32,000 bases of DNA from Candidatus Lokiarchaeum ossiferum (GTDB lineage: Archaea > Asgardarchaeota > Lokiarchaeia > Sigyniarchaeales > Promethearchaeaceae): contig CP104013.1 of the NCBI GenBank assembly GCA_025839675.1, forward strand, positions 3,420,001 to 3,452,000, in the 5' to 3' direction. Positions 276 to 25,108 of the stretch are shown here, in pieces. The notes under the pieces were generated by a model. That model was not told the DNA's origin. It was given only the letters and a program-made list of their open reading frames with translations, and did no database searches. The stretch's first letter is position 1. The number at the start of each line of letters is the position of its first letter. The position numbers were made by a program, and so were the translations under genes.

Positions 276-1232
276 CTAACGATGTTTTATCATTTCCTCT
301 AATTCTTTCAACTTATCAGATACCACTTGTGAAGATCCAAAAAGTGTCGGAAATATATTATTGTTTTTATCTGGACTTATGACAATTAGCATCCCATAAT
401 CATTGATTTCTTTGAGAATAATAAATCGAGTTTCTGTGGTAAAAATATAGGAATCCAAATACATATGTTCCTGCTTAGATTGCTGGAAGGCTTCTTGAAT
501 TGATTCAAAGATCGAATCAATATTTGATTCCATCAGTGCGATATCCAATGGGATGTATTTTAAAGGATCTGCAGGAATATCCCCTAATGTTGATGTAGTG
601 ATTAATCCATCTGGACGGTTTAACAAGATCAATTCACAATTAATGTCCGCTTTTATGGATTCTAACATTTCCCGAATATTTTTCCTTTTCTGGAGTTCAA
701 GAACAGAATTTTCCAAAGCATTATCAAGAATTTCAATCAATCGATGTTGAGCCGTGCCATGTTTCACAGAAACGGGGGTGAATTCTAATAAGTGGAGATA
801 TTTTGGGTCAATTTCCAACCGCAATAATTCAAACAGCTTGTTCGGATCTGCTCCTTCAACATCAGTTTTATTCATCAAAACATAAATCCGTTTAACTTGG
901 GGAGATAATTCGACAATATTTTCTACAAATTGTTTGAAGAGCTTTGCTTGTTCTGGGTGCAATTCTGAACAATCCTCCATGAATATGGGAATTGATACTT
1001 CAGAAAATAAACTTTCTCGTTGGTTTTCAGAAAAATATCGTTTAAGATATTTATCTTGCCCGCCAGAATCCCATGCATTGATTTCAAGCAATCCCCGAAA
1101 GAGATAGTTTTCTCTGCTAATTCCTCTAGTAGGTGGGATGTTTATCAGTTGCAAAAATGTATAGCCTTCACAGGTTGATTTCAGTAATGAAGTTTTCCCA
1201 ACAGCAGCATTTCCGAATACAAGCGTCTTCAC
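276..1232 (-). CDS. Small GTPase (Rag/Gtr1-like G domain) fused to a C-terminal roadblock/LC7-like domain
   Basis: G1 is GNAAVGKTS, the switch I Thr lies in PPTRGI, G3 is WDSGGQ, G4 is NKTD and G5 is like SVK. The stretch WDSGGQDKYLKRYFSENQRESLFSEVSIPIFMED resembles the Rag/Gtr1 pattern after G3. Residues ~185-318 (ELILLNRPDGLITTS...RFIILKEINDYGMLIVISP) look roadblock-like. The start is GTG at 1232, 6 codons before the P-loop. Confidence 0.8.
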   Translation of the reverse strand: MKTLVFGNAAVGKTSLLKSTCEGYTFLQLINIPPTRGISRENYLFRGLLEINAWDSGGQDKYLKRYFSENQRESLFSEVSIPIFMEDCSELHPEQAKLFKQFVENIVELSPQVKRIYVLMNKTDVEGADPNKLFELLRLEIDPKYLHLLEFTPVSVKHGTAQHRLIEILDNALENSVLELQKRKNIREMLESIKADINCELILLNRPDGLITTSTLGDIPADPLKYIPLDIALMESNIDSIFESIQEAFQQSKQEHMYLDSYIFTTETRFIILKEINDYGMLIVISPDKNNNIFPTLFGSSQVVSDKLKELEEMIKHR

Positions 1233-1439: not shown

Positions 1440-1667
1440 TTAGATTAAGTGGCGCATGAAGTAGTCAATTTGCTTCTTCGAGTTTTCATAGGCCTTTTCA
1501 ATATTTTTCCCAAAAAGCTTTGGCATTACTTCCTCGATGGAATAGTCAATTATTTTTGACAATTTATCAAAATTCTTGAGATTAGAACCTATATTTTGAA
1601 TAATTTTGGAATAATCTACTTTGGTTTTTTTGTTTATTTCTTCGATTTCATTTGATCCTTCAGTCAT
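1440..1667 (-). CDS. Hypothetical 75-aa helical protein (orphan)
   Basis: ATG ORF starting 21 nt downstream of the activase stop, with an SD-like GAGAGGT 7 nt upstream of the ATG (minus strand). The sequence is K/E/I-rich and I recognise no motif. Confidence 0.5.
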   Translation of the reverse strand: MTEGSNEIEEINKKTKVDYSKIIQNIGSNLKNFDKLSKIIDYSIEEVMPKLFGKNIEKAYENSKKQIDYFMRHLI

Positions 1668-1688
1668 TGATGCAACCTCTCTATCGAA

Positions 1689-2792
1689 TTAAAAAACAGC
1701 CCATTTTCCACACCGATCTCCCCAACGGGCTACTACTTCTTTTCGTTCTTTACCATTCTCATCTGTATCTCCTGTTTTCATAAGAACAGATACAACTTCA
1801 CAACGATTAGGACAACCCTGACACCGAAATGCTTTAGTTTGAAATTCAATATCCAAAACATCAAAGCCTCGGAATTTTGTTTGCCATTTACCCGCTATTT
1901 TTTCTGTCCGGTGAGCTTCTTCCATTACTAAAATTGCTGCCCCAATTGCTCCCATTAAGATATTATTTTCTGGGACGATAACTTTTGCGTTCAAAGCTTT
2001 TTCAAAAGATTTCACAAGACCCTTATTAAAACTAACTCCTCCTTGGAATACAATGGGCCCTTCAATAACTTTTCCTTTACCAACGTTATTAAGATAATTT
2101 CTTACTAAAGCGTCACAGAGTCCTTTAATGATGTCCTCCTTAGAATATCCCATTTGGGCTTTATGAATCATATCTGATTCCGCAAAAACACCACATCGTC
2201 CTGCAATATTGACTTCCGTTTCAGATCGAAGTGCATATTCCCCAAATTTTTCAATCGGAATTCCTAGGCGAGTTGCTTGATGATCTAAGAAACTTCCGGT
2301 TCCCGCAGCGCATACTGAATTCATTGCAAAATCAGCTACAATTCCATTGCGCAAAATTATTATTTTAGAGTCTTGACCCCCAATTTCAAGTATTGTCTTG
2401 ACATCCGGATAGAAAGTTGAAGAAGCTACTGCATGGGAAATGATTTCAGTTTTTGCAATATCCCCTCCTACCACACTTTTAATCAAGTACCGGGCTGAAC
2501 CTGTAGTTCCAACTCCACAAATATTAATTTTATCTAGAATTCCATTAGATTCTAACTTATCTTTAAGTTCTTGTAATCCTTTTTTTGAAGATTCAATAGG
2601 ACTCCCTTGATTACGAAGCCAAAGTTTTTCGACAATATTCTTTTCTTCATCTAATAAGACTATCTTAAGAGAAACTGATCCAATGTCAATTCCCATGTAT
2701 ACATCGATCTTTTCATTCTTAAGTAGATGTTGGATATTTTGCATTTGTTGAATGGAAGTCACTTGAGTGTTTGCTGCTTTTTGCTGGGTCAT
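1689..2792 (-). CDS. BcrA/BadF/HgdC-type ATPase (activator of a 2-hydroxyacyl-CoA dehydratase / benzoyl-CoA reductase-family enzyme)
   Basis: Contains the ASKHA phosphate-1 motif YMGIDIGSVSLK, GVGTTGSAR and EIGGQDSK. The conserved cysteines in NSVCAAGTGSF and AGRCGVFAESD sit at positions that bridge a [4Fe-4S] in HgdC-type activators. There is an additional C-terminal Cys motif, FRCQGCPNRCEV...WGDRCGKW. Confidence 0.9.
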   Translation of the reverse strand: MTQQKAANTQVTSIQQMQNIQHLLKNEKIDVYMGIDIGSVSLKIVLLDEEKNIVEKLWLRNQGSPIESSKKGLQELKDKLESNGILDKINICGVGTTGSARYLIKSVVGGDIAKTEIISHAVASSTFYPDVKTILEIGGQDSKIIILRNGIVADFAMNSVCAAGTGSFLDHQATRLGIPIEKFGEYALRSETEVNIAGRCGVFAESDMIHKAQMGYSKEDIIKGLCDALVRNYLNNVGKGKVIEGPIVFQGGVSFNKGLVKSFEKALNAKVIVPENNILMGAIGAAILVMEEAHRTEKIAGKWQTKFRGFDVLDIEFQTKAFRCQGCPNRCEVVSVLMKTGDTDENGKERKEVVARWGDRCGKWAVF

Positions 2793-2829
2793 TTTTTCAC
2801 TGATTTCCTAATTATTTTATAACGTGCCA

Positions 2830-4104
2830 TTACTCGTTTTTATTTTTTGGGGTTTTTTTCAATAATTGAGGTTTTTTAATCATAGAGAGCATATCGCAAA
2901 AGGGATTGAAGACATGTTCTACAAAATTATTGAATTTATAATATTTATTTGATTTTCCATACATTTCTTGGATTTCCGATGGCTCAACATATACTCCTTG
3001 AAATTTTGGGTTATTTTCACGATTGGCTTTCATCAAATCTATGAAGGCTTCTAATCGTGTTCGCATCCCTTCATATCCGGTATGTTCATCGAAAGCAAAA
3101 AACTGAACCGGTAAATAGAATGGATCAGGGCTTTGCCCTTCGATTATTCCTCGGGCGGTGACTTCTGGCATGCATGTAAATGGATATATATGGACAAAAC
3201 CATCAAATCCTTCTTCTTGACTTTGAATATAATGGCCTATCACCCAGATTGCTTCACCTCCAATATCAATTGGTATATATGGTTTAGAAATTCGTTCAAG
3301 ATTCTTCCGTTTATAATTTAAGTGAAGTTTATGCAAAACCCATCCATATAAACTGTTCCCCAAATGGACTTCAATCCCTTCTTCTCCAAATTTCTTGATT
3401 AAATCCATATTGATGAAATTTTCCAGCACCACATGGTTTTCACCTGCTAACATGATTCTTAAAGGTTGGAAATCACGCTTAATTGGTATTTTTTGAAATT
3501 CGGTGCGAATCACTTGATCAAAAGAATGTAATTTAAACATATCATTTTCATTATCTAATCTCTTTAATAAGCGGGACACGATCTTGGTTGTATCGCCTCT
3601 ATGGATTTCTCGACATCGAATTAATCCTTCCAAACGGACAATGTCCTCAATATAACTTCCTTTTACAAATGAATAGCGAATTGCAGGAATTAGATCAAAA
3701 AGCCGCATTACTTTTCCTTTCACTCGTGTTAATTTGAGTAGTGGATCCAACCACTGAAAATCAAGCAAATCATCTTGTTGAATGGGAATAATGATGACAT
3801 CGTATCCAAGATCTTTTAAGATTCGTTCCTGAATCGGGGCATAAAAACCAAGACGGCAGGGTCCGCAGTCTATAGACATGATGAACACATTCACATTGTG
3901 GTTTTCAATCATATTAATGAATTCACCAAGAGTGACTTTGAAGGGTAAACACACAAACTCGGGAGAATGCTTGGATCCTAATTTTACAATATCTTGGGTG
4001 ACATCTGGAGGAACAACAACTTCTACACCAGGTAAATGTTCAAATAAAGATTTGAACGGGATCCTACTATATCCCATTGAAGGGAAGCTTACTCTTATTG
4101 TCAT
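2830..4104 (-). CDS. 2-hydroxyacyl-CoA dehydratase D-component-like (HGD-D-like) subunit of the BCR/HAD-family enzyme
   Basis: The N-terminus VSFPSMGYSRIPFKSLFEHLPGVEVVVPP...SPEFVCLPFKVTLGEF and the later IYPFTCMPE are typical of the C-terminal halves of the large CoA-substrate-specific enzyme activase proteins. The gene is tightly linked to its neighbours (22-nt and 37-nt gaps). Confidence 0.75.
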   Translation of the reverse strand: MTIRVSFPSMGYSRIPFKSLFEHLPGVEVVVPPDVTQDIVKLGSKHSPEFVCLPFKVTLGEFINMIENHNVNVFIMSIDCGPCRLGFYAPIQERILKDLGYDVIIIPIQQDDLLDFQWLDPLLKLTRVKGKVMRLFDLIPAIRYSFVKGSYIEDIVRLEGLIRCREIHRGDTTKIVSRLLKRLDNENDMFKLHSFDQVIRTEFQKIPIKRDFQPLRIMLAGENHVVLENFINMDLIKKFGEEGIEVHLGNSLYGWVLHKLHLNYKRKNLERISKPYIPIDIGGEAIWVIGHYIQSQEEGFDGFVHIYPFTCMPEVTARGIIEGQSPDPFYLPVQFFAFDEHTGYEGMRTRLEAFIDLMKANRENNPKFQGVYVEPSEIQEMYGKSNKYYKFNNFVEHVFNPFCDMLSMIKKPQLLKKTPKNKNE

Positions 4105-4126
4105 AATGTATCATTTCTTGATTTCT

Positions 4127-5068
4127 TTACTTATATTTTTCTCGACGGATCATGTCTACAAAAGATTCAATGCGGGTTGTCAATCCTGATTCCCCTGAAT
4201 GTTCATCTAAAATCAAATCCAAATATGGAATTTTGCGACGTTTCATATCTCGCATAACTAATTCTTGAATTAAACTATCAGGACCACATGCAAAAGAGAT
4301 CAAAAAAATCACCCCATCAACCTGATCACGACCTTCCGTAAGGTAATATCGAGCAGTTTTGAGAATCTCATCTTCGCTTTGCCAATATTGGTGGTATTGC
4401 TTGTTAATTGTGACTGGTTTTTTGAAAATTTCTTTTGGGTGCTTTTCTATGGTCATTATATGGCAATCCATGGCTTTTAATCGCGCGATTAAATCGATGT
4501 TGATATAAGCCTCATAGACATTGTATGGATGTCCTAGGATCACGATATTTAAGGGAAATTTGCCTTTCATTTCTTTCGACATTCGATGGCGAAAATGTTT
4601 TTCAGTCTGTTTATGGGCAGAATTTGAATCTAATTGATTTAAAAGTTCAATATAATCTCCCTTACGAGCTTGCGATTGGAATTTTTGAAATTTTTGCATC
4701 GCAAAATACCATGCTTCCCCCGATTTTTCTTGATCAAATCCTAACTCTTTCCCCATTTTGATCGCACCCTCAATTCCTTTCATTTTTTTTGCATTTACTT
4801 CCAAGGTTAAGATTGGTACAGGAATATTCATTCCATGTTTAACGGCTTCTGGTAGAATGAGGAATTTTGGGCAGAAATATTGTTCTTTATGATTAGAAAT
4901 ATATCGGGGGATGAAAATATAATCTAAATTTGAATATTCATCGATAAGTGCTTTTATATGACCAAAATATATCTTCATTGGAACACACAATTCCGAATTT
5001 GCGATTTTCGAGCCATTCTCAACTATGTTTGTAGTGGTTGCTGGGCTAAAAACTACTTCGCAGTTCAA
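4127..5068 (-). CDS. DUF2229-like (CoA enzyme activase domain) subunit; true start unresolved and probably upstream of 5068
   Basis: The track ORF starts at TTG 5068. The same frame stays open to 5242 and encodes KRVGIPRALYFYKYGPLWKAFLEN directly upstream, which is the conserved N-terminal motif of this domain family. The body contains SELCVPMK, FCPKF and ISFACGPDS motifs. See the finding at 5066-5245. Confidence 0.75.
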   Translation of the reverse strand: MNCEVVFSPATTTNIVENGSKIANSELCVPMKIYFGHIKALIDEYSNLDYIFIPRYISNHKEQYFCPKFLILPEAVKHGMNIPVPILTLEVNAKKMKGIEGAIKMGKELGFDQEKSGEAWYFAMQKFQKFQSQARKGDYIELLNQLDSNSAHKQTEKHFRHRMSKEMKGKFPLNIVILGHPYNVYEAYINIDLIARLKAMDCHIMTIEKHPKEIFKKPVTINKQYHQYWQSEDEILKTARYYLTEGRDQVDGVIFLISFACGPDSLIQELVMRDMKRRKIPYLDLILDEHSGESGLTTRIESFVDMIRREKYK

Positions 5069-5242
5069 GTTCTCAAGAAATGCTTTCCATAAAGGACCAT
5101 ATTTGTAAAAATATAGGGCTCGGGGAATACCAACTCTTTTCTTTCCATTAGTTGAAAGAAGGGTAATTGATGGATCAGCTATATTATTATTCGTTTTTTT
5201 CCCCTCGCATAAATTATCAATATCTTCTCTTCTTTTTCTTTT

Positions 5243-6034
5243 TTATGGCGCCTTTTTTTGTTCTTCCTCAGTGATCCAAACATCTGTCCAAAGTTTTTTA
5301 ACTTTTCTATGGATTTTTCGAGTTAATTTATCAACTTGCTTGAAATTCAGATCCTTGAAATCAGAAGCTTGAGTTATATTAGAAATTGGAATCAAATCCC
5401 CAAATTTGACTCGAATTTTACCCTGAGGATTAATAATAGATGCTTTTTTTCCATAAATACGATCAGTGCCATAGATTGCTATTGGTAAAATTGGTGCCTG
5501 GGTACTTATTGCCAGCCGTAAAAAATCTGATTTAAATTGTAAGAGTTTTCCATTTCCAGAACCCAACTCGCCTTCTGGAAACATAACTAACAGTTTCCCA
5601 TCAAAAAGTGTTTGTTCACATCGTTCAAAGGCTTCCATGTCTTCTTCTTGGGGGCGGACAAAAATTGCTTGATTTACTCGAAAAAAGTTTTGCAGCATGG
5701 AATCAGTTCCTAATTTCGTATCCAATACCTGAATAGGAATACGTTGACTTTTATGATTAATGACAATTGAAGAGATAATTGGATCTAAAGTAGATTGAGA
5801 GTTACAAATAATGATTGCTGGACCTTCTAATGGAATAGCTTTTGAATTGAAGATTTGTAAATCATAAATCTTCTTTAAGACATTGAAAAGAATAGGATCT
5901 TCGATTCCCTTTATAAATAGTTCATCTAAAGGTTCTAAATACCCAATTTTTTTAATTACTTGCCGAAATCCGTAGATAGAGTTATTAATAGAATCAATAA
6001 TAAAACGTTTTAGAAAATTCTCTTCTTTGGGCAT
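5243..6034 (-). CDS. PlsC/LPLAT-family acyltransferase-like protein with degenerate HX4D motif
   Basis: The acyltransferase fold blocks are present: GPAIIICNSQSTLDP (block I with Ser in place of the catalytic His), FPEGELGSGNG (block III without the usual TRS) and APILPIAIYG (block IV). ATG start at 6034. Confidence 0.7.
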   Translation of the reverse strand: MPKEENFLKRFIIDSINNSIYGFRQVIKKIGYLEPLDELFIKGIEDPILFNVLKKIYDLQIFNSKAIPLEGPAIIICNSQSTLDPIISSIVINHKSQRIPIQVLDTKLGTDSMLQNFFRVNQAIFVRPQEEDMEAFERCEQTLFDGKLLVMFPEGELGSGNGKLLQFKSDFLRLAISTQAPILPIAIYGTDRIYGKKASIINPQGKIRVKFGDLIPISNITQASDFKDLNFKQVDKLTRKIHRKVKKLWTDVWITEEEQKKAP

Positions 6035-6096
6035 TTTTAACTACTATTTTTAATGAATTGTTGAAAAAAAACTTAAAGATTTTGAAGAGATAAAAA

Positions 6097-7068
6097 TTAA
6101 GAAATAGATAAATCTTCGGCAGGGTTAAAGCCTGGATCCATAATCGATTTAGGAATTTTTGCGCGTTTTTTGGTTTTTTGTTGGGTAGATATTGCAAGAG
6201 AAGCAGGAACTTTTTCTCTTTTTGAAATGGTTCGGGATTCATTCATTTCTCCACTTTGCAATTTTAAAATATCATTTCGCATTGCATTTTTAATCAATTG
6301 TGCATTCTCGTAATTTGCTTCCAAGCTGGGATCGGCATATACCGGTTTGCCGATTACAATGGATATCTCATATCCACCTTTCCATTTGATAGAAGAAGGT
6401 CCTTTATGCTTAGGGAAGACTTTATATGCTCCAATTACTGCGCACGGAACGTAAGGTACTCCAGACTCCAATACTAATCGAGCTGCTCCACTTCGAAATT
6501 CTCCAAGTGAACCATCTGAAGATCGTGTTCCTTCGGGAAACATGCCAACACATCCGCCATTTTCAAGAACATTTCTGACATTTTGCATCGCTTCTTCATC
6601 TCGCTGTCCACGTTTCAATGGAATTGTGCCAAATGGTTTGATAAATGATTTAAAGATTGGGATTTGGAAATTTTCTGCTTTGGATAACCATTGTACTTTG
6701 CGATGAACGGCACTTCCCACTAGAAATGGATCTAATTCACTTTGATGATTAGCAATTACTAAGGCTCCACCGTATTCTGGAAAATTTTCTTTCCCTCGAA
6801 TAGGATATTTCCAATAGGTTTTAAATAACTTTATAAAATTAGTTCTTCCTACATTCCAGTAGATAAAATCGTCAAAAATGTCGAGAACTCCAAATCTTTT
6901 CATAACTTTTCTTGAAATATTAGATAGTGGGTCAATGGGATTGCATTTAATTAAGTATTTTCCAAAACTCATTTTCTTCCCAGTAGTTCTTCTTTTAATA
7001 GAATTATTTGCTTTTTCCATATCACTAAGCACCCCAATACTGATAGAAATTGCTTGTAGTTTAGTCAA
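6097..7068 (-). CDS. plsC: 1-acyl-sn-glycerol-3-phosphate acyltransferase-like (PlsC/LPLAT family), canonical motifs
   Basis: Contains GGALVIANHQSELDP (HX4D), GMFPEGTRSSDG, GAARL and VPYVPCAVIG. The track start at 7068 is TTG. An ATG 16 codons downstream (7018-7020, MEKANN...) is at least as likely to be the real start. Confidence 0.85.
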   Translation of the reverse strand: MTKLQAISISIGVLSDMEKANNSIKRRTTGKKMSFGKYLIKCNPIDPLSNISRKVMKRFGVLDIFDDFIYWNVGRTNFIKLFKTYWKYPIRGKENFPEYGGALVIANHQSELDPFLVGSAVHRKVQWLSKAENFQIPIFKSFIKPFGTIPLKRGQRDEEAMQNVRNVLENGGCVGMFPEGTRSSDGSLGEFRSGAARLVLESGVPYVPCAVIGAYKVFPKHKGPSSIKWKGGYEISIVIGKPVYADPSLEANYENAQLIKNAMRNDILKLQSGEMNESRTISKREKVPASLAISTQQKTKKRAKIPKSIMDPGFNPAEDLSIS

Positions 7069-7325: not shown

Positions 7326-10300
7326 ATGTTTCCTACCAAAAATGTATCTAATCCGACAAAAGATGCGTCTAATCGTTCCGAATCTCCCCTTTTGGTAAAA
7401 TTTACCAATTTCGTTACCAATTTTATCTTTTTCTTGTTTTTTATGGTAGGGGTGCCCTTTTTACTTGGATGGGCGATATCAACTGTTACAACATCCTTAA
7501 TTTCTAATCCAGCATTATTTGACGAGATTAGGTTGGGTGTATGGCTTCTCTTTTCCGCCATTATGGTCCCAGTTGGATACATTTTCTTCTTGAAAAGTCG
7601 AAAACTTCCCATTTTTCATAAAATTACAATTTCAACCCAAGAAAAACCGTTATTCCAATCTTTAGGTCTTTTAATCCTGCCTGAACTGATTGTAGTCTCT
7701 TCATTTTATGTTTTAAATGGTGTTTTAGGCTATTCCACTTTTTTAAAAGAATTTCAATTTGCAATTATTCCAATTTTCTCTGTTGCTAGCCTTCTTCTCC
7801 TTTCTACTTATAGCATTTTAATTGATCCCACACATTTACATCTTGAAACAATAAACAGAGGTGATCAACAAGGTTATGTGGTAGCTTTTCATCAAAAATC
7901 GATGGCTAAAATCTTTCAGGATACCCTAATCTTGAAGATGATTTTGATTTTAGGTGCTTTATTTTTAGATATGCATGTGGTATTAGTTATAATAGTAGAT
8001 GGATTCTTGTTAATTTTGCTGAGTGTTTTTTCAGCATTAAGTAGCAAAATCAGCCCTGAAAAACAAGATTATCGGTTCGCTTTAAAAATAATTATTTATA
8101 AAACGGGGCTCTTAGTTGCAGGGCTCCTAATTTTTGCAATATCTCTTAATTCCTCCGAATTTAATCAAATATTATTCATTCTAACTACAATTCTCCTGAT
8201 ATTTAAGGTCGCTTTAACATCATTTATGGGTCAAATTCGGAACTTAAACTACAATGAGGCGATGTGGCAACGAAGTAAGAAAATAAATGATATTTTGACT
8301 CTCATTCTTTATTTATGTTCTATTCCCCTAATTTTTCTTAGATTTGGGGAATTAGGAGGAATTTTTGCATTCATCACAGTTCTTCTATTCGTTCCCCTAA
8401 TTTTTATAGAAAATCATTACGAGATTACCAATAAGGAATTTGCGCGCATTTTCTACATGGCCAATTTACTGATTTGCGATGCTATATTGTCTTTCTTTGT
8501 TATTCCAACTAGTTTATTTGGTTCTTCTGTAATGGTGAATATAGTCATTTTTACCCTCTTGTTGACAGTATTTTCTTCTGTTTTGGACTACCAGAAGCTC
8601 ATTAGTAAAAAGGCTTATGTGATTTTGCAGAATATTTTATTGACAACCCTCTTCTTTGAGATTGCCATCCAATTAGCGATGTTTAATTTTCTTCCTATCT
8701 CCAATTCGGTAGTTTTCAACTACATTTGGTTTTTATCAATTGGATTTCTTAGCTCTTTTTATCGTCTCTATGTTGTTCAGTTCAAAAAACAAACGAATCG
8801 GTATCTTTCTGTCATTATTATTGGGTGTTTCTACATTATTTTCAGTGGAATATTTCTTCTTCTCACTAAAAATCTTGTAGGAATTAATGATCGGCTAATT
8901 TCCCCTATCCAAGAGGGAACGGGTCTTCCTATTATTTTTCGCCCTTCTGGTTTTATTTCTTTTATTGAAAATTCTTTAGAGAACTTTTTCTCGTGGATTG
9001 GCACTCTGAATGCAAATTTCAGCGCTATGATACCTTCATCAAACGGATTGATCAGTTTATGGAACTTATTTCTATGTCTAGGACTCACTCTTGGAATGCT
9101 ATTTTTTGTGTTGAACATTCATAAACAACTAAAAATCCTTAATTCTAATGTATATCTTAAAAATACTTTAATTCTTCAGTTATTTGGCAATATTGTGCTC
9201 TTTTTTGGAACATTATTGGTATTTCAATCTTTTTTTGGACTGTTTTTAGCTATTTCCATTGCTATTCTTGGAGTATCTCGTATTATTAGAAAGATGTTTC
9301 AACTCAAATTGAAGATTGATGATCAAGCAAAATATGATCAAATAACTCAAAAATTAATTCTATTTAATTTGGGATTGTCTCTTTTCTGTTTTCTCTTCTT
9401 TAGTTGGGAAATAATGCAGCTAAATGTATTTTTATCATTAGTAATTGCGATGTTTGTACTGAAAGTATATGTTAATCTTGTGCCTATCGTTAAAAATGCT
9501 TTAAATCACGTTGTTAATGGAAAAATGACTCTCCATTTAATTAATGGGGTGATTACATGTTTAATATCCGGCTTATTAATACCTTCAGTTATTCTCAATC
9601 TTGAATCTATTTTTGCAATTCAGCCTTCTATTCATCTCGGCATCTTAGCTAGCAGTTCCATTCTTATTCTTACTCTGTTTTACCGGCTTGCTTTGCCTCA
9701 ATTTTTAAAAGGAAATTATTTAACCCAACTGCAATATTCAAAAATGGTTTTCCTGAATTCAATCGTATTTCTTGGTTCAGTGTATGCAGTAGTCGAGATA
9801 ATTGGGTTGCATTATATTTCATGGATAAATCTACAACATCAATCATTATCAATCAATCTCTGGGTTATTTTTGTTCCCCTTTATGCCATTTGGTTCATTT
9901 CAAATAGACAAAAGACATCTTCTCTCAGGAAAGATGACGAATTTGTAAAATTAGGATGGCAAATCGCTACCCTTGTACTCTGGATTATATCGACAAGTGG
10001 ATTCGCTTTTTCTTTAATGTACTCTTTAGCTTTTAGCTTGTTTTTTGTCTCCCTTGGAGTGATAATTTTGGGCACATGCACAATTACCACTTTAAATTAC
10101 TTAACTCAACTAAAACCTGCCTTAGAACCGAAATTAAGTGAATTGAAAACTCGAATTTCTTATATCACCATTTTATTGATCATCTTAGCGGTGTTTTCTG
10201 CTAGCTATAAAACACCCGATGATGGTCTTTCGGCTTCTCTCTCCTTGGTGTTTGCTCTCCTATCTGCCATTATTTTATTCAATTCCGTTCCTCTCCTTCG

Positions 10301-13300
10301 AAAAAGCTTATCGACTAAGGCTTTATTCATTTTAAATGCATCATTCTTAGTTTCTTTATCAATCGTGATTGATACATCCATTCTTATTCCTTTAAATGAG
10401 ATACAATCTATATCACTTTCGGTCTTTTCAGCGAGTTTTTTAATTCCATTAGTAATGATCCAATATTCTATCTACCTTTTAGGTAAAAGTGTAATTGCTC
10501 ATGAACTCTCTCGAAAGATTCATCAAATCGTTGCATTTATAGGATTAATTACCATAGCCAGCATTCCATTTGAATCGATTCTAAATTCTTCTGGTGGAGT
10601 ATTTTTAGCGCTCTTTGTGTCTTCATTAATTATCACAGCACTTTTAGTAGTCGATATGGTCACTTTCAAATGGATAACTACCGATCGCTTAATCCTTTTG
10701 GTGTTTCTCATAGCATTTGCTACTAATGCAACTTCGTTAGGATTATTTGTAAGCAATAATCTTGATTTAAATTTAGATTATAAGATAGTGATTTTCATTC
10801 TTTTCATGCTCCCCTGTGTTTTTAGTTTGCTAAAATTTGTAGATTGGGGAAACAATAAGTTGTTACAAAAAAGGTCACAGGCAACTCCTGTGCAAAATAT
10901 TTCAACGCAAAGTATTCAAACTAAATCTCAAAGTGAAGTCCCCTATCCCCCTTCAAATACTGCTGTAAATATTCATAATGTTCCCAATGTTCCTTCGATG
11001 CAACAACCTATTATTTCTGATCCAATTCAGTATTCTGGTGATTTGCCCTTAACTCATAATCTTCAACAGCAAATTTTAAGTCACTATGATTCCATTGTTC
11101 CTATTTTTGATATTTTATGTTTATTGATTTCTTCTTATTTAGGCCTTCGAATGATTTTCAGTGATGCTCTATCATTTCCATTGGCGATATTAATAATGGG
11201 AACTTCCATTCTATCTGCCTTGACAACTTTTGATAATAAAACTAAAATGACTTCCTTTTTCATTGAATATTTCCAAGCCTTAATTTCAATTGCTCTTTAT
11301 TTCTTATTCACTATAGATGTTGAAGGTTCCTTCATTATCAACATTCTACCTAATGTTTCTGAAAATGTCATTATTTGGCTTATTTTCGCTCTTCAACTTC
11401 TTTTTATTGGGTTTTCTGCTTTTATTTCCACCCATCACACTCCTGTTAATAAAATTGTTAAAAATTCACAATCACTATTCTTGTTCGCCTTAATTGGATA
11501 CCCTTTCATTGCAACTCCTTTTATCGCAGAAAAAATACCAATAACTCTCGCATTAACATTTATAGCACTAATTTTTACCATTAGTATAGATTTTCGCTTT
11601 AAAAATCTCCTTTTCCGTTCTATATTACCCTGGAGTTTAGCCACTTTGGTAGGACATCTCCTGTGGAATTACTCTGATCGACCTTTACATTTAGACATAC
11701 TTATTCCAATTACTGTCGGAATGGTTTTACAATGGGTGCTTCTTCAATATTATTATCTTGGAAATTCCAAAATTAGTAAATTTAAAAGCATCATAGGATA
11801 TTCTGCCATTTTATTGAGTTTAACTACCTATATTACTTTATATCTTGAATTTAAATTTGTGATGGGACTACTTTCTCCAGTTGTTTTCAGTTTATTAATT
11901 ATTACCCTTCTTCAATTGAAGAAAATACCCTCCCTCTCCCATCGAATCTCCATTTATAATCAAATCATAATTCTATCTACTTTTGTGGTTTTCTTTTTCG
12001 CAGGAGCTCACTATTTCTTTTTTACTTTTGAATATAAATGGTATCTTGCCATTTCCCTCGCTAGTACCGCATCTGGGTTTGTAAACTTAAAACTTTTTGA
12101 CAAATTAAATGTTCAAGCTTCAAAATTTATAATTGGAAATTTAGGATTATCAACCATTTCGTCTGGACTATTATTCGGTCTTTTTCTTAATGATCCAACC
12201 CTTATTGATATGAAATTAAAGTTTGTTGTCCCTATTGCCATTGATTTAGCAGTACTCATGTTTTTCTTGGCAATTCGAGCCTATCAAGGATCTTTCAAAC
12301 AAGTGTGGGATTATGGATGGTATATATGGAATATCATGCCTATTGTTAATTTGTTCCTCATTTTTCCACTTGTATCAGGATTAGATCAATTATCAAGTGG
12401 TATTCCGCTCATAAATGATCTTTCTCTCAATGGTTCCATTATTCTTACCTTAATCTTAGTTTCTTTTCTTGAATTACCGGTATTCATCTCCAAGTTAAAG
12501 AAGAATTTCAATCGCATAATTTATGGATTTTGGCTGGAGTTTGTTGTTTTAAGTATTTGGGGAGCAGAAAATCTTTTTCCAGAATTGCTAACAGTAAAAC
12601 TTGCTTTCATTGGACTTGCAGCATTTTTGCTTTTGGTCCCAATTTTCACTTATTACAAGCAATGGAATTATCTAACTATCCTTTGGCCTTTTTTAGCTGC
12701 TGCAAACATTCTTTTCTTTTCTTTTCTGTTTGAAATAGATCCTAGTTGGATGATCCCTGTGGATTCTTTGGTTGGAGGACTTTATGTTCTAGTGTGGGGT
12801 TATTTTCCCAATATCAAAGAAAAATTTACAAAAACTCGTTTAGCTCTTATTCTTATTGGTTATTTTTCAATGTATGTAAGTATTTTTGCTTTAGTTTTCA
12901 ATTTTGTACAATTGATAGGTGTCCCCTCGAATATTGCTTTAAGCCTTACATTTATTATTATGTCATTTGGGCTACTTTCTGGAAAATGGGTCGATCTTAG
13001 TGAAAAAGGGTTGAAAGTTGTTCTTTCCGTTACCTCTGTTGTGAACATGGGTATAATTACTGCTCAATCTATGGCTTTAATTCCTGGATACGATTTAAAA
13101 TTATTTGGCATTTTTCTAGGGCTTTCATTTTCCTTTGGCTCTCTATTCATCTTCCAATCAAGAAATTTCCTCCCCCCTGTTTTCAAAGAAATTATTTGGT
13201 TTGGTATGGCTTTATCCATGGGATTAGCAATCGCATCATTGTTGCTATTTTTGTGGCATGCAGGCATTTGGGCCGTTATTGGTGTCTTAATCCTAGTAAC

Positions 13301-16300
13301 ATGTCTTATCTGCCTTCCCTTGTCCTTCTTCCGACAAAATCTCTTTATTATCAATTCGTTCATGGTGCTAAGTATTTCCTTATTAAGTATGCAACCTTTG
13401 GTCCATATTTCCAAATTTGTGGAATTTCATCAACCGTTGGTGTTCATTGATATCTTTTTAGGATTAGAACTCGTTTACTTGTGGATTTCTGCTAAAAAAC
13501 CACGCTATTCGTTATTTCAGAACTTAAAGAAAAATTTGGAAATGTTTGTCATTTTATGGATGGTCTTTTCAACCCTAATCTCATTCACTTTTATTCGTTT
13601 TGTAATGGATTTGATGCATTTTGATTTTGATTTAATTATTGTTTTTGGGACGATATTAGGTTTCAGTCTTCTTGCCTTATTGGGTATGAAACCAATTCGA
13701 GATTACGCTCTTTTTAATCAATTTTCAGTTATTGATAAGATCATAACGCATTTACGAACGAGTTTAAGTATTATTTCCTATGGGAGTGCAGCAATTCTGA
13801 TTGGTATTATTTTGCCTTCCACTTCCATTTCTACTGCAAATCCGATTCTATTTAATATTTGTTATCGATTGGCTGTAATTTCTCTAGTTTTGCTCGTGGA
13901 GTTTTCTGTTCTTGATAGTTATCAAGTGAAATTAATTCCGCCTGAGTTACGGAGTCAACTGACTTGGATATTCTTTTTCATATTCACTCTTTGTGGATTT
14001 GGGTTAGTTCAGCTAAGTGTTGAATATTGGGCACTTTCCCTATTCTTACTTTGTCTTTTCACTTTTGCCACAATCCGATTGATAGTCAATGCCAATACAA
14101 AAATAAACCCTAAAAATTTGAATTTAGGAAACGCATTAGTACTGATTGGGACTTTGTTTAGTGTACTATGGGGAGTTTTAAAAATCGAAGAGCATGTGAT
14201 TGATAAAAATTTCCATACATTATCGTTGAATTTGTTGATCGCCAGCCTTCTTGTGTATGGATTTGCAAAAATTAAGATTATACCTGCCAAAATTCTCCAA
14301 TTTATTCCCTATATTATCAGTTTCTTTATGGCAATACTACTGGAAGAACTTAGTCGCGTCTATTTACCGTTATCTCCTTTATTCCATTGTTGCGTCTTTA
14401 TTCTGTTCTTTTCAATTCTAAATTTAAAACGTATAACTCATTCTTTTCTTGTCTATTTCTTCTGGCTTGGTTTAGCCCTTTCTCTTTCCGGTTTTATTAT
14501 GGAGCCGATCTCAATTCTTGCTGGGGACTCTCTTTCTCTTTATAGTAAAGTGATGATGTTCCTATTTGGACTTTCTACGCTATTTTCGTTCTTTACACAT
14601 CGAATCGCCTCAATTATTCACCATCAAACTCCAAATTCACATTATGCGCTTGATGTTGCAAAACCTGCATTCAAACCTATGAAAATCAATTATGGATATA
14701 ATAACATCAAAACTAACCAGAAGATCTTCGTTGGTAGTACAATTTTTTCAGGACTTATAACTACTATAGGGGGCACATCATTATGGGCTAGTTTGATTTC
14801 ATCCAAATTGACTTCAAGTGAACTTATCACATCCTTACAGCAATCGTTCTTACTCATTTCTCTTCCTCCCTTAATCTTATCTATTTTTGCTGCCTCGATC
14901 TTTAACTATATCTGGGCTAACGAGTTATGGTTTGATCATGAAAATGTAAAAAATCGCTTGATAAAATGGCAAAAGATATCTGGAGTCCTCATTTATTTAT
15001 TCATTCCGATTTTTATTACCTCAAATCTCCATTTTCTCTTGCTTCCTGTCTTAGAAAATCTGTGGTGGAGATTTACAATCGATTATTTTGCAATTTCTGG
15101 TTTAAGTTTCATCTGTGTGTCATTATTTGATCGAAAATTTGTTCATTATCTTGATGATCAATTATCCTTGAAAATTTCTATGGTTGCTTTAGTAGGAATA
15201 GGAATTTCATTGTTCGGATTCTGGTATCTTGCTACTGGAAATATCATGGGAGGTTTAATTATATTTTCTCTCTTTTCTTTTAGTTTGAAACCTTACGTTC
15301 GGATTTATGATAAAATATACTTGAAATTCATCTTTGGTTTGAATCTAAGCCTTTATTTATGGATTTTAATACAAATTGGGGTGCTTCTATATTCGATTCC
15401 ATCATTTTGGATCCTAGCAACAATAATTCTTCTTGTCTGCATTCACATAGCTATCGAAATCGAGTCTCATTTTACCTTCTTAAGGCCTTTTACTCAGTGG
15501 ATTCAGGCATTACGATTAATTTCTTGGGTAGTTACCTCCGTAGGCACAACTGCATTGATGGTTGTGCAACAAATATCTCAATTCTCTCTTGGATACCTCT
15601 TTTTAGATATGATTATTTTAACTGTGGAAGGATTTTATTTGAATTATCTTCTTTATCATCAAAAAGATGCCGATAAATATTTCAAAAACAATCAAACTCT
15701 CGGTTTAATTGTGTATGGAGAAATTATTGGATTGATTACCTCCTTTCTAATCCCAATTATATTAGCGATCAATACAGATTCAAAAATTTTAGACTTATTG
15801 GAAAGTTTCGCGTTAGCCAGCGTTATCTGCTTCGCGATTTATGGGTTGATTTATTTAGACGATAAAATTATTCATTTGATTCAACCTCAATCTCGAAAAA
15901 TTTTACGTTTGGGCACCTATTTATTATTTATTGGAATATTTGCTATAGATTGCAGCCTTTTGGTAATGTTTATTTTCGATTTATCTCCTATTGGGGGATC
16001 ATTACCTTTCAATCAGCAGATTTTTCTTTCGTCAACCATTGGATCTGGCATTCTGGCTTTGGCATTTCTGTATCGGTTCCACAACAAAAAAATTAATCAA
16101 ATCTTTTATTGGATTGTTTCCATCCAGATTTCCATCCTTTGTTATATTTCTGATAGTCCAATCTTACTAGTTGTGGTGGCTTCTCTTTCCTTTGTCATGT
16201 ACTTCTTCATTTTCTTCATGGAAGCTATATTAAAGGCCCTTCGGATCATTATTGAAAAAATTTCTCTCTTTTTCAAGAACATATGGGGATATATTCGCCA

Positions 16301-16766
16301 ATTTCTTACTTGGATACTTCAAACACTTGTTGGATTCTATCGCAAATTTAAAAAAGCAATTTACCTTTCTTCAGCTCTAGTATTGAGTGGATTTCTATTC
16401 TATTTCTTAGGGGGGACTAATTTTGAATTAATTCCTAGAATTTCTTCCTCTATACTTGCTTTTCTCTTAGTTATTATCCCTATTTCTCCAGAAGTTCAGA
16501 AAAAAACGACAGAAAGAACATTTCTTGCAAAAATATTTTATCGATTCGGAATTTTATTCTCCGCTCTCGGAATAAGTAATCAATTTGCTCCCGATTTTCC
16601 TTGGTGGAATCCCTTCATAATTTTCATTTTCTTTGCAGCTTTTATTTGGGGTGTGAAAATATCAGAAGATGAATATAAATTGTCAATATATTGGCGTTTT
16701 AGTGCGGTTATATTAACGATCATAGATTTAATCTATCTTGTTTACGTATTCGTGTTCGGGTCGTAG
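7326..16766 (+). CDS. Giant (3,146 aa) polytopic integral membrane protein of unknown function
   Basis: A 9.4-kb uninterrupted ORF in AT-rich DNA. The translation is F/L/I/S-rich, with hydrophobic 18-25-residue segments about every 33 residues (~90 by manual count) and short K/R-containing loops. The only clearly polar stretch is a Q/S/P-rich linker at aa ~1178-1255. No known catalytic or transport motif was recognised. Confidence 0.85.
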   Translation: MFPTKNVSNPTKDASNRSESPLLVKFTNFVTNFIFFLFFMVGVPFLLGWAISTVTTSLISNPALFDEIRLGVWLLFSAIMVPVGYIFFLKSRKLPIFHKITISTQEKPLFQSLGLLILPELIVVSSFYVLNGVLGYSTFLKEFQFAIIPIFSVASLLLLSTYSILIDPTHLHLETINRGDQQGYVVAFHQKSMAKIFQDTLILKMILILGALFLDMHVVLVIIVDGFLLILLSVFSALSSKISPEKQDYRFALKIIIYKTGLLVAGLLIFAISLNSSEFNQILFILTTILLIFKVALTSFMGQIRNLNYNEAMWQRSKKINDILTLILYLCSIPLIFLRFGELGGIFAFITVLLFVPLIFIENHYEITNKEFARIFYMANLLICDAILSFFVIPTSLFGSSVMVNIVIFTLLLTVFSSVLDYQKLISKKAYVILQNILLTTLFFEIAIQLAMFNFLPISNSVVFNYIWFLSIGFLSSFYRLYVVQFKKQTNRYLSVIIIGCFYIIFSGIFLLLTKNLVGINDRLISPIQEGTGLPIIFRPSGFISFIENSLENFFSWIGTLNANFSAMIPSSNGLISLWNLFLCLGLTLGMLFFVLNIHKQLKILNSNVYLKNTLILQLFGNIVLFFGTLLVFQSFFGLFLAISIAILGVSRIIRKMFQLKLKIDDQAKYDQITQKLILFNLGLSLFCFLFFSWEIMQLNVFLSLVIAMFVLKVYVNLVPIVKNALNHVVNGKMTLHLINGVITCLISGLLIPSVILNLESIFAIQPSIHLGILASSSILILTLFYRLALPQFLKGNYLTQLQYSKMVFLNSIVFLGSVYAVVEIIGLHYISWINLQHQSLSINLWVIFVPLYAIWFISNRQKTSSLRKDDEFVKLGWQIATLVLWIISTSGFAFSLMYSLAFSLFFVSLGVIILGTCTITTLNYLTQLKPALEPKLSELKTRISYITILLIILAVFSASYKTPDDGLSASLSLVFALLSAIILFNSVPLLRKSLSTKALFILNASFLVSLSIVIDTSILIPLNEIQSISLSVFSASFLIPLVMIQYSIYLLGKSVIAHELSRKIHQIVAFIGLITIASIPFESILNSSGGVFLALFVSSLIITALLVVDMVTFKWITTDRLILLVFLIAFATNATSLGLFVSNNLDLNLDYKIVIFILFMLPCVFSLLKFVDWGNNKLLQKRSQATPVQNISTQSIQTKSQSEVPYPPSNTAVNIHNVPNVPSMQQPIISDPIQYSGDLPLTHNLQQQILSHYDSIVPIFDILCLLISSYLGLRMIFSDALSFPLAILIMGTSILSALTTFDNKTKMTSFFIEYFQALISIALYFLFTIDVEGSFIINILPNVSENVIIWLIFALQLLFIGFSAFISTHHTPVNKIVKNSQSLFLFALIGYPFIATPFIAEKIPITLALTFIALIFTISIDFRFKNLLFRSILPWSLATLVGHLLWNYSDRPLHLDILIPITVGMVLQWVLLQYYYLGNSKISKFKSIIGYSAILLSLTTYITLYLEFKFVMGLLSPVVFSLLIITLLQLKKIPSLSHRISIYNQIIILSTFVVFFFAGAHYFFFTFEYKWYLAISLASTASGFVNLKLFDKLNVQASKFIIGNLGLSTISSGLLFGLFLNDPTLIDMKLKFVVPIAIDLAVLMFFLAIRAYQGSFKQVWDYGWYIWNIMPIVNLFLIFPLVSGLDQLSSGIPLINDLSLNGSIILTLILVSFLELPVFISKLKKNFNRIIYGFWLEFVVLSIWGAENLFPELLTVKLAFIGLAAFLLLVPIFTYYKQWNYLTILWPFLAAANILFFSFLFEIDPSWMIPVDSLVGGLYVLVWGYFPNIKEKFTKTRLALILIGYFSMYVSIFALVFNFVQLIGVPSNIALSLTFIIMSFGLLSGKWVDLSEKGLKVVLSVTSVVNMGIITAQSMALIPGYDLKLFGIFLGLSFSFGSLFIFQSRNFLPPVFKEIIWFGMALSMGLAIASLLLFLWHAGIWAVIGVLILVTCLICLPLSFFRQNLFIINSFMVLSISLLSMQPLVHISKFVEFHQPLVFIDIFLGLELVYLWISAKKPRYSLFQNLKKNLEMFVILWMVFSTLISFTFIRFVMDLMHFDFDLIIVFGTILGFSLLALLGMKPIRDYALFNQFSVIDKIITHLRTSLSIISYGSAAILIGIILPSTSISTANPILFNICYRLAVISLVLLVEFSVLDSYQVKLIPPELRSQLTWIFFFIFTLCGFGLVQLSVEYWALSLFLLCLFTFATIRLIVNANTKINPKNLNLGNALVLIGTLFSVLWGVLKIEEHVIDKNFHTLSLNLLIASLLVYGFAKIKIIPAKILQFIPYIISFFMAILLEELSRVYLPLSPLFHCCVFILFFSILNLKRITHSFLVYFFWLGLALSLSGFIMEPISILAGDSLSLYSKVMMFLFGLSTLFSFFTHRIASIIHHQTPNSHYALDVAKPAFKPMKINYGYNNIKTNQKIFVGSTIFSGLITTIGGTSLWASLISSKLTSSELITSLQQSFLLISLPPLILSIFAASIFNYIWANELWFDHENVKNRLIKWQKISGVLIYLFIPIFITSNLHFLLLPVLENLWWRFTIDYFAISGLSFICVSLFDRKFVHYLDDQLSLKISMVALVGIGISLFGFWYLATGNIMGGLIIFSLFSFSLKPYVRIYDKIYLKFIFGLNLSLYLWILIQIGVLLYSIPSFWILATIILLVCIHIAIEIESHFTFLRPFTQWIQALRLISWVVTSVGTTALMVVQQISQFSLGYLFLDMIILTVEGFYLNYLLYHQKDADKYFKNNQTLGLIVYGEIIGLITSFLIPIILAINTDSKILDLLESFALASVICFAIYGLIYLDDKIIHLIQPQSRKILRLGTYLLFIGIFAIDCSLLVMFIFDLSPIGGSLPFNQQIFLSSTIGSGILALAFLYRFHNKKINQIFYWIVSIQISILCYISDSPILLVVVASLSFVMYFFIFFMEAILKALRIIIEKISLFFKNIWGYIRQFLTWILQTLVGFYRKFKKAIYLSSALVLSGFLFYFLGGTNFELIPRISSSILAFLLVIIPISPEVQKKTTERTFLAKIFYRFGILFSALGISNQFAPDFPWWNPFIIFIFFAAFIWGVKISEDEYKLSIYWRFSAVILTIIDLIYLVYVFVFGS

Positions 16767-17405: not shown

Positions 17406-17409
17406 CTTT

Positions 17410-21815: not shown

Positions 21816-21845
21816 AAAAAACTGGAATTCATCATTTAAGTGTTA

Positions 21846-25004
<3,159 letters not shown>

Positions 25005-25108
25005 TTATTTTCACTTATTGTTATACCTCGTTTAGTTAAAAAAAAACTTTTTGCAAAGAAACCAAACTTTTTTTGAAAAAGATTAATTATAATAACTTGA
25101 CTTCGAAA

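Follow-up and report, generated by a model that had tools for sequence, protein, structure and literature searches.

The closest described systems to the genes treated here are PlsA/PlsR and Ger, bacterial enzymes that reduce an ester to an alk-1-enyl or alkyl ether. PlsA/PlsR, encoded by CPE1194-1195 in Clostridium perfringens and by a single gene in Enterococcus faecalis and Listeria, totals ~1,425 aa in the arrangement Act1-Act2-Red1-Red2 (PMC12838417). Ger (Tmari_0479 in Thermotoga maritima, with the arrangement BBDHDDH, and SHJ90043 in Desulfatibacillum alkenivorans) is an ATP-dependent ester-to-alkyl-ether reductase in which BBD is followed by small D/H segments (PMC13159169). In the literature searched, PlsA/PlsR and Ger were the only characterised DUF2229 proteins found. 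A related set of five genes is located in a 32,000-nt stretch of DNA (hereafter the window; GenBank assembly GCA_025839675.1, contig CP104013.1, positions 3,420,001 to 3,452,000), which exact protein matches assign to Candidatus Lokiarchaeum ossiferum B-35, a cultured Asgard archaeon; an earlier reading of the sequence alone (the initial annotation) had rightly called the genome archaeal-looking. The genes encode two PlsC-type acyltransferases (PlsC1 and PlsC2), two reductase subunits (Red1 and Red2), and an activator ATPase (Act). The cassette may combine a PlsC-family acyltransferase with an ATP-dependent Fe-S reductase that takes the resulting acyl ester as its substrate, plausibly yielding an alkyl or alkenyl ether glycerolipid, and we give this reading a probability of roughly 45%. 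The linkage of acyltransferase and reductase is kept across the Asgard archaea, which suggests fatty-acid-derived ether lipids in this group.

A scan for Red1 with one genome per species returned 80 loci (L001-L080), nearly all of them Asgard, from metagenome-assembled genomes labelled Loki-, Thor-, Hermod-, Hod-, Odin-, and Borr- and including Promethearchaeum syntrophicum MK-D1. PlsC linkage was counted on the same strand and within 3 kb of Red1 in the 76 loci that extend 2 kb or more upstream. In 70 of the 76, one or more PlsC-type domains precede Red1, and 63 have two; the PlsC-Red1 gap is no more than 400 nt in 64. The initial annotation had made its lipid proposal depend on finding this linkage in related genomes, and there it recurs. 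Both PlsC domains reside within one open reading frame (ORF) of ~555 aa in 58 of the 63 double-PlsC loci. As an internal control, all neighbouring ORFs of the 80 loci were clustered into families; PlsC was found at 76 loci, a HAD_2 hydrolase at 51, and the next commonest family, an MFS transporter, at 22. From the PlsC side, a metagenome scan placed Red1 downstream in 3/3 Asgard-type loci and 0/77 generic PlsC loci among the matches listed.

Several loci carry additional genes. A HAD phosphatase is found upstream in 44 of the 59 loci with more than 3.5 kb upstream and lies no more than 300 nt before PlsC in 33 loci; this partner is of the HAD-IA type and resembles PpaX/phosphoglycolate phosphatase. 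The fullest form, at L029 (7414-14556), consists of closely spaced genes for the HAD phosphatase, a fused PlsC.PlsC protein, Red1, Red2, Act, and a third PF01553 acyltransferase. Weak PlsC2-like tblastn matches directly follow Act in seven more loci, the Pfam check having covered L029 only. The window contains neither the HAD phosphatase nor the third acyltransferase. Among the 39 loci with at least 2.8 kb downstream of Red1, Red2 is within 500 nt of Red1 in 17 and anywhere in the locus in 28, and a split Act is present in 23.

Within the BCR/HAD superfamily, the three reductase genes (Red1, Red2, and Act) are members of the DUF2229 branch. Red1 matches DUF2229 (PF09989) with 123.2 bits over profile positions 25-215 of 218 (cutoff 29.4), so that the hidden Markov model search upheld its first description as DUF2229-like. 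Its match to HGD-D (PF06050) is restricted to the last 60 residues (profile positions 282-342) and, at 28.0 bits, is under the cutoff of 28.4. Red2 matches DUF2229 at profile positions 17-73 only (37.4 bits, cutoff 29.4), and the Pfam scan detected no HGD-D match in it. Red2 and Red1 are distant paralogues (19% identity, E = 1e-9), so the label "HGD-D-like" that Red2 had received was loose. Both are HAD/BCR-fold subunits with three invariant Cys each, namely C63, C101, and C296 in Red1 and C52, C83, and C311 in Red2 (28 orthologues). The AlphaFold (AF2) model of Red1 has a mean confidence score (pLDDT) of 83.7, and its best Foldseek matches are catalytic subunits, those of the double-cubane cluster protein (DCCP; 7yyl/6eno), 2-hydroxyisocaproyl-CoA dehydratase (HadC; 3o3m_B), and the benzoyl-CoA reductases (MbdO/N and BzdN/O), with a probability of 1.0 and a template-modelling (TM) score of ~0.5. 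Profile matches of Red1 to the PDB, where no DUF2229 protein has a solved structure, are marginal (E = 1e-5 to 1e-4; 1e-4 for HadC), and the DCCP model NF040772 scores 16 bits against a cutoff of 350.

Act is an ATPase of the BcrA/HgdC type, as first proposed, matching PF01869 (BcrAD_BadFG) with 155 bits (cutoff 31.5) and TIGR00241 with 191 bits (cutoff 125.4) and carrying the N-terminal ATP-binding motif GIDIGSVS. The two cluster-ligating Cys and the extra motif read from the sequence at the outset are likewise present, as C161 and C200, 39 residues apart, and as CQGCPNRC at residues 324-331 together with C361. Cys127 and Cys166 of HgdC have the same spacing. None of the six positions (C161, C200, C324, C327, C331, and C361) varies among 24 Asgard orthologues, and Act is presumed to form a homodimer with a bridging [4Fe-4S] cluster. 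PDB matches of Act (MbdQ, HadI, and HgdC) cover residues 32-300 only. In the alignment, the split Act proteins of Asgard archaea, Omnitrophota, Monoglobus, and others all carry CxxCxNxC(E/Q)...G(D/N)(R/K)C just after the ATPase domain. The same 4-Cys motif is found in the Act2-to-D linker of PlsA-type proteins from Listeria, Fusobacterium, Collinsella, and Acetoanaerobium and of the fused Asgard proteins described below, whereas HgdC, HadI, and MbdQ end before this point and thus lack it. From this alignment we infer that the 4-Cys motif could serve as a family-defining criterion.

By analogy with the HgdC/HadI activators of 2-hydroxyacyl-CoA dehydratases, the Act homodimer would accept an electron from ferredoxin or flavodoxin. 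ATP hydrolysis would push this low-potential electron into a Red1/Red2 heterodimer, where it would reach the [4Fe-4S] clusters, the 4-Cys site being its probable route. Ligation by three Cys would leave one iron of the cluster free, and this iron could bind the carbonyl oxygen of the substrate and give a ketyl-type radical. The putative substrate is the ester carbonyl of an acyl-glycerolipid supplied by PlsC1 or, in other Asgard lineages, by the fused double PlsC with the HAD phosphatase, and its reduction would give an alk-1-enyl or alkyl ether, as in the reactions of bacterial PlsA/PlsR and Ger. The more specific proposal of a self-contained Asgard cassette, in which the HAD phosphatase, the double PlsC, and the split reductase together make alkyl or alk-1-enyl (plasmalogen-like) ethers, is rather unlikely in our estimation.

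The fold of Red1, the kind of activator ATPase, and the logic of ATP-driven electron injection are common to the window set and to HgdABC, HadBCI, Bzd, Mbd, and DCCP. The genes might be read as a classical 2-hydroxyacyl-CoA dehydratase (HgdAB/HadBC with its activator) in amino-acid fermentation, and cultured Asgard archaea do ferment amino acids or peptides. Act matches HgdC and HadI with 117-126 bits, and NCBI labels some relatives as "acyl-CoA dehydratase activase(-related)" or "2-hydroxyacyl-CoA dehydratase". However, this explanation conflicts with both the Pfam scores and the gene context, and we regard it as hardly tenable. The HGD-D match is below the cutoff in Red1 and absent from Red2, and the PDB match to HadC is marginal, as given above. 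Unlike Act, the activators of those systems have no 4-Cys tail; their substrates are CoA thioesters or small molecules, and their gene neighbours are different. No gene for a CoA-transferase, a 2-hydroxyacid dehydrogenase, or an acyl-CoA dehydrogenase lies nearby in the window, where the initial annotation had already noted that the neighbours are not CoA-transferase or amino-acid-fermentation genes, and none is among the ten most recurrent neighbour families scanned in the 80 loci. The conserved partners are instead acyltransferases and a phosphatase.

A second, fused type of reductase is encoded at seven Asgard loci (L013, L016, L023, L024, L026, L031, and L062) by an Act-Act-Red1 (BBD) gene. 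Its product has 981-985 aa in six loci and, counted from the first start codon, 865 aa in L013. The PlsC pair and Red1 are located just upstream of the BBD gene in L013, L024, L026, L031, and L062, and no PlsC was found within 3 kb of Red1 in L016 and L023. BBD genes are followed by an ORF of 462-466 aa, at most a candidate PlsR equivalent, which has no Pfam match where checked (L013 and L026) and only short local matches to Red2/PlsR. The 32-kb window contains no BBD gene. The Asgard BBD proteins are 65-67% identical to proteins of Thermodesulfobacteriota and Abyssobacteria, some of which are 1,427-1,444 aa long, and this identity suggests a recent inter-domain transfer of the gene. "Ger homologs" have been reported for Lokiarchaeota including MK-D1 (PMC13159169). 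Because BBD is so close to bacterial proteins, those homologs most likely correspond to the fused BBD-type paralogue and not to the split genes of the window. Contigs end within 1.2 kb downstream of Red1 at 32 of the 80 loci and within 1.2 kb upstream at 4 of the 80. This excess looks like a recurrent assembly break, which may reflect alternative downstream cassettes (Red2-Act versus BBD with the 462-466-aa ORF) or repeats.

The window set resembles PlsA/PlsR in having an activase, DUF2229, and a second HAD-fold module in the same order, in the 4-Cys motif that separates the ATPase from the first reductase module, and in its conserved cluster Cys. It differs in that it has one ATPase domain instead of two, is divided among three separate polypeptides, and, in Asgard archaea, is tied to PlsC genes. 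Identity is 21-23% between Red1 and the D domains of four bacterial PlsA-type proteins. Red2, whose homology to PlsR-type regions spans the whole protein, shows 21-23% identity over ~355 aa with the PlsR-type C-terminal regions of Listeria and Acetoanaerobium (E = 1e-8; 1e-8 to 2e-4 for PlsR-type regions overall). With Ger the window set has DUF2229 in common, but Ger fuses two activation domains to the reductase, and its close Asgard likeness is BBD rather than any gene of the window. Act, a single stand-alone protein of 367 aa, is without the tandem-activase fusion used as a criterion for PlsA and Ger.

Split genes of the same kind also occur in bacteria. The Red1-Red2-Act operon, in the same order, is present in Omnitrophota (L090), Monoglobus pectinilyticus (L085), and contigs L092/L093 and L094, so the three-way split with a single ATPase, thought unusual in the initial annotation, is not. 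Red1-Red2 pairs occur in Thermoanaerobacter (L081) and Natranaerobius (L083). The bacterial split operons and the window set have the subfamily, the gene order, and the 4-Cys tail on Act in common. Red1 is 31-38% identical to the bacterial split proteins, Red2 up to 45% (Omnitrophota), and Act matches that of Monoglobus with 362 bits. A phmmer comparison gave Red2 156-196 bits with split Red2 proteins versus no more than 15 with fused proteins. When 1.84 billion representatives were searched with a profile, 3,525 matched; the best 150 of these are stand-alone proteins of ~300-370 aa, shorter fragments, or Red1-Red2 fusions of ~670-770 aa, and no BBD protein is among the best 150. Like PlsA/PlsR, the split operon stands alone in bacteria, and its variable neighbours would be expected for a ubiquitous substrate such as a membrane lipid, although this is only suggestive.

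The relationship was further assessed in a Kimura-distance neighbour-joining tree of 49 sequences and 332 columns, with 100 bootstraps and rooted on Red2. The PlsA-type references were from Listeria, Collinsella, Fusobacterium, and Acetoanaerobium, their function being inferred from literature that reports pls orthologues in these genera. The PLSDB records from which PlsA-type genes were taken (NZ_CP030101.1, NZ_CP084075.1, and NZ_CP154629.1) are filed as plasmids and are chromosome-sized (2.1-2.9 Mb), and PLSDB record NZ_LR134399.1 (0.39 Mb) looks like a chromosomal fragment. Within the split clade, the Asgard sequences form one monophyletic group (bootstrap 96), and their nearest bacterial relative in the sample is from Omnitrophota (93). 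Judged by these comparisons, Red1 and Red2 are not orthologues of PlsA/PlsR or Ger and fall in a sister "split" clade. The initial description of a PlsA/PlsR/Ger-like set thus survives at the level of the DUF2229 branch but not at that of the clade, and the phylogeny that had been suggested as a check places the proteins next to, and outside, the PlsA-type group.

Several points weigh against an ether-lipid function. The tree sets a clade of PlsA-type, Asgard BBD, and Paraclostridium sequences (bootstrap 89) apart from the split clade, and it was built without the validated C. perfringens PlsA, T. maritima Ger, and D. alkenivorans Ger. Red1 is only 21-25% identical to PlsA-type sequences, and its phmmer scores are 171-201 bits with bacterial stand-alone Red1 versus 31-78 bits with fused D domains. 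A PlsC gene was found in 0/6 of the bacterial split contexts examined, from which the HAD gene is likewise absent. The split clade contains no member of known function, and a 2026 study, which found activation-domain-less PlsA homologues in all the Bacillota that it screened, called their role unclear (PMC13274423). The acceptor of the acyltransferase is not readable from sequence, and Red1 has no canonical start codon in this genome. Finally, only isoprenoid hydrocarbons were reported among the lipids of MK-D1 (PMC11316595), which carries PlsC1-Red1-Red2-Act (L006); the lipid method applied to MK-D1 could miss ester lipids (PMC13400652).

Part of this evidence would suit an ATP-dependent Fe-S reductase or dehydratase for a non-glycerolipid substrate, such as an acyl-CoA or acyl-ester metabolite, an aminolipid, or another acylated acceptor, made or consumed by the PlsC enzymes with no ether lipid involved. 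The split clade is deep-branching and uncharacterised (PMC13274423), its bacterial members have no lipid-gene neighbours, and the MK-D1 lipid report (PMC11316595) would pose no difficulty. PF01553 enzymes also acylate lyso-ornithine lipids and other acceptors, weak OlsA/OlsF matches were obtained, and the HAD partner is of a generic small-molecule phosphatase type (PpaX/PGP-like). On the other hand, the acyltransferases match families of 1-acylglycerol-3-phosphate and phospholipid acyltransferases best, and the sole relative in the PDB is a PlsC. The characterised DUF2229 enzymes in the literature searched are lipid ester reductases only, a genuine PlsA/Ger-type gene lies in the same neighbourhood at seven Asgard loci, and the 4-Cys signature is common to Act and PlsA-type proteins. 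We therefore consider a non-glycerolipid substrate unlikely, while treating it as a serious competitor to the ether-glycerolipid reading.

In a further possibility, PlsC1 acylates an isoprenoid lyso-lipid, a glycerol-1-phosphate backbone, or a head group, and the reductase then converts this ester, so that chimeric isoprenoid/alkyl ethers are formed in place of bacterial-type lipids. Asgard genomes also encode the archaeal ether-lipid pathway (PMC9385802; PMC11316595), bacterial PlsY and PlsC take both glycerol-phosphate stereoisomers (PMC13400652), and the cassette is kept across Asgard archaea. Nevertheless, no such lipid has been reported, the sequence does not reveal the acceptor, and we judge mixed lipids of this kind quite improbable.

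The two acyltransferases differ in their active sites. Both exceed the gathering score of PF01553 (110.5 bits for PlsC1 and 77.9 bits for PlsC2; cutoff 23), and both are under the TIGR00530 cutoff of 102.95 (99.5 and 59.1), which the fused double PlsC of L029 passes at 151 bits; the PRK15018 equivalog scores 35.7 versus a cutoff of 501. PlsC1 is the canonical PlsC that the initial annotation recognised, with HX4D as NHQSELD and block III as FPEGTRS, and by these motifs it would be catalytically intact. Its sole PDB match is T. maritima PlsC (5KYM, E = 3e-15), with which it has the PF01553 signature, HX4D, and FPEGTR in common; PlsC1 is nevertheless distant from that enzyme, with a longer N-terminus and an added C-terminal tail. 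PlsC2 is a PlsC-like paralogue, as had been noted, but one that has lost its catalytic His (NSQSTLD in place of HX4D, with FPEGELG as block III, so that neither motif is retained). PlsC2 therefore appears catalytically degenerate, and the pair combines one intact site with one degenerate site.

This degeneration is not general among Asgard PlsC domains. Unlike single-domain PlsC, most Asgard archaea fuse two such domains in one ~555-aa protein, whose proximal domain keeps the His (NHNSEWD or SHNSEWD) in 56 of the 63 double-PlsC loci; the distal domain keeps both the HX4D and the FPEGTR-type motif in the 63 loci. Two separate genes replace the double PlsC in the L. ossiferum / Harpocratesius / Promethearchaeum group; no HAD gene adjoins the cassette there, and a 75-aa ORF and a Rag-like GTPase follow Act. 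In the proximal copy, PlsC2, the His position is S, L, F, and F in the window, L095, L002, and L005, respectively, and block III has been lost too; the His is present in L008 and L009; and a PlsC2-type gene is absent in MK-D1 (L006), L003, and L007. PlsC2 in this lineage is probably a non-catalytic partner or an altered subunit.

The start of Red1 is anomalous in the window. Its conserved N-terminus (KKRVGIPRALYFYKYGPLW) is encoded in frame upstream of TTG 5068, and starting the protein at this TTG would remove it, yet no in-frame ATG, GTG, or TTG precedes the conserved N-terminus (window 5069-5242, minus strand). The ATG of the 94% identical Red1 orthologue in L095, the nearest relative, is replaced in the window, with a 6-nt deletion beside it, and an out-of-frame ATG occurs at ~5147. 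ATA 5173 is only a candidate start; a non-canonical start (ATA 5173 or ATT) and a sequence error are both possible.

The lost start codon of Red1, the lost His of PlsC2, and the absence of PlsC2 from L003, L006 (MK-D1), and L007 could all be taken as signs that the cassette is decaying in the L. ossiferum lineage and has no current function there. The five window proteins are 86-94% identical to their L095 counterparts, with dS of 0.8-1.3, and the ratios of nonsynonymous to synonymous substitution rates (dN/dS) are 0.057 (PlsC1), 0.094 (PlsC2), 0.025 (Red1), 0.022 (Red2), and 0.030 (Act). All five genes are under strong purifying selection. Decay is contradicted by these values; moreover, the reading frames are intact, including that of the conserved Red1 N-terminus. 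We consider decay very improbable.

The coordinates of the cassette genes, their neighbours, and an example of a BBD locus are listed in Table 1. The ORF list confirmed the five same-strand ORFs and their limits as first drawn, and the minus strand of window 1440-7068 holds six closely packed genes when the 75-aa ORF is included. The intergenic gaps first given as 22-62 nt hold for PlsC1-PlsC2 (62 nt), Red1-Red2 (22 nt), and Red2-Act (37 nt) but not for PlsC2-Red1, which measures 174 nt to the first canonical Red1 start. The longest ORF of PlsC1 begins at TTG 7068, and the length of the NCBI protein, 307 aa, points to ATG 7020 as its start; PlsC1 and the L. ossiferum "lysophospholipid acyltransferase family protein" of NCBI show 100% identity. 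Red2 also matches an L. ossiferum protein exactly, NEF87_002902 being the same gene with a shorter deposited start. The gaps were inspected for T-runs and TATA-like boxes only. The 62-nt gap after PlsC1 holds T5 and T8 runs and a TATA-like box, and PlsC1 may therefore be transcribed separately, from its own transcription unit, whereas neither the 22-nt Red1-Red2 gap nor the 37-nt Red2-Act gap has a T-run or space for a promoter, apart from a short TATA-like string.

Table 1. Positions of the cassette genes and adjoining features (window coordinates unless a locus is named).
Feature	Position	Strand	Evidence or remarks
PlsC1, LPLAT/AGPAT-family acyltransferase	6097-7068	-	PF01553, catalytic motifs intact
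PlsC2, acyltransferase-fold paralogue	5243-6034	-	PF01553; exact match NEF87_002904
Red1, DUF2229 catalytic-type subunit	4127 to ~5173 (4127-5068 from canonical TTG)	-	DUF2229
Red2, Red1 paralogue, presumed partner subunit	2830-4104	-	DUF2229 N-terminal part
Act, single-domain HgdC/BcrAD-type ATPase with C-terminal 4-Cys extension	1689-2792	-	PF01869, TIGR00241; exact match NEF87_002901
75-aa ORF, candidate sixth cassette member in this clade	1440-1667	-	tblastn; exact match NEF87_002900
Gtr1/RagA-like small GTPase	276-1232	-	long C-terminal extension
Giant multi-pass membrane ORF	7326-16766	+	3,146 aa; nearly all hydrophobic segments
PadR-like regulator adjoining 2TM-domain protein	16770-18036	-	
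GH2 beta-galactosidase adjoining DUF2961 protein	20553-25001	-, +	1,051 aa (-); 420 aa (+)
ThiS-family ubiquitin-like small protein	25073-25402	+	
Helicase-nuclease	26020-30342	+	1,440 aa; DUF4011/AAA_11/AAA_12/C-terminal MTES_1575
BBD example locus	L026: 8037-15711		

The 75-aa ORF begins 21 nt downstream of Act. It has no meaningful Pfam match, and tblastn matches to it directly follow Act in L095, L007, L006 (MK-D1), L001, L005, L008, L004, and L002; it is a possible sixth gene of the cassette in the L. ossiferum clade. The GTPase gene lies ~200 nt downstream of this ORF. Matches to the GTPase with 53-70% identity (tblastn) occur downstream of Act in L001, L006 (MK-D1), and L007, and in L095 the corresponding 318-aa Gtr1_RagA gene, also downstream of Act, is 89% identical. 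The giant membrane ORF is divergent from PlsC1, and its counterpart in L095, at the same position, has 3,144 aa and no Pfam family on record. The layout of L095 is identical to that of the window, giant ORF and GTPase included, and these two flanking genes fit an Asgard genome. Farther along the window, the GH2 beta-galactosidase and the DUF2961 protein form a carbohydrate-utilisation pair. The 1,440-aa ORF was considered as a fused activase and ruled out by its domains, and with its MTES_1575 restriction-endonuclease-like domain, this helicase-nuclease is possibly defence-related.

Asgard PlsC homologues, Asgard "Ger homologs", and activation-domain-less PlsA homologues are already known. In the searchable literature, we found neither the near-universal HAD-PlsC.PlsC-Red1 cassette nor the distinction between split and Ger-like paralogues at one Asgard locus, and the shared 4-Cys signature and the degenerate PlsC2 were not found there either. 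Searches combining Asgard with hydroxyacyl-CoA dehydratase or activase gave nothing, and those combining Asgard with PlsA gave the 2022 Ger paper only. The role of the bacterial-type PlsC homologues of Asgard archaea is debated in the context of the "lipid divide" and eukaryogenesis (PMC9385802, PMC13400652). In Asgard archaea, a PlsA/Ger-related ATP-dependent reductase almost always adjoins these PlsC genes, often together with a HAD phosphatase, and two paralogous reductase systems, one split and one Ger-like and fused, occur at this Asgard locus.

L. ossiferum and P. syntrophicum have both been cultured, and each carries the cassette under selection; the ether-lipid hypothesis is therefore directly testable. 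If the split clade consists of ester reductases, this would annotate thousands of proteins now named "acyl-CoA dehydratase activase-related" in anaerobic bacteria, whose role has been called unclear. The self-contained Asgard cassette, if real, would give a large bacterial and archaeal subfamily (>3,500 representatives at 50% identity) its first function, and archaea of the lineage closest to eukaryotes would have a way of making non-isoprenoid ether lipids that needs no oxygen.

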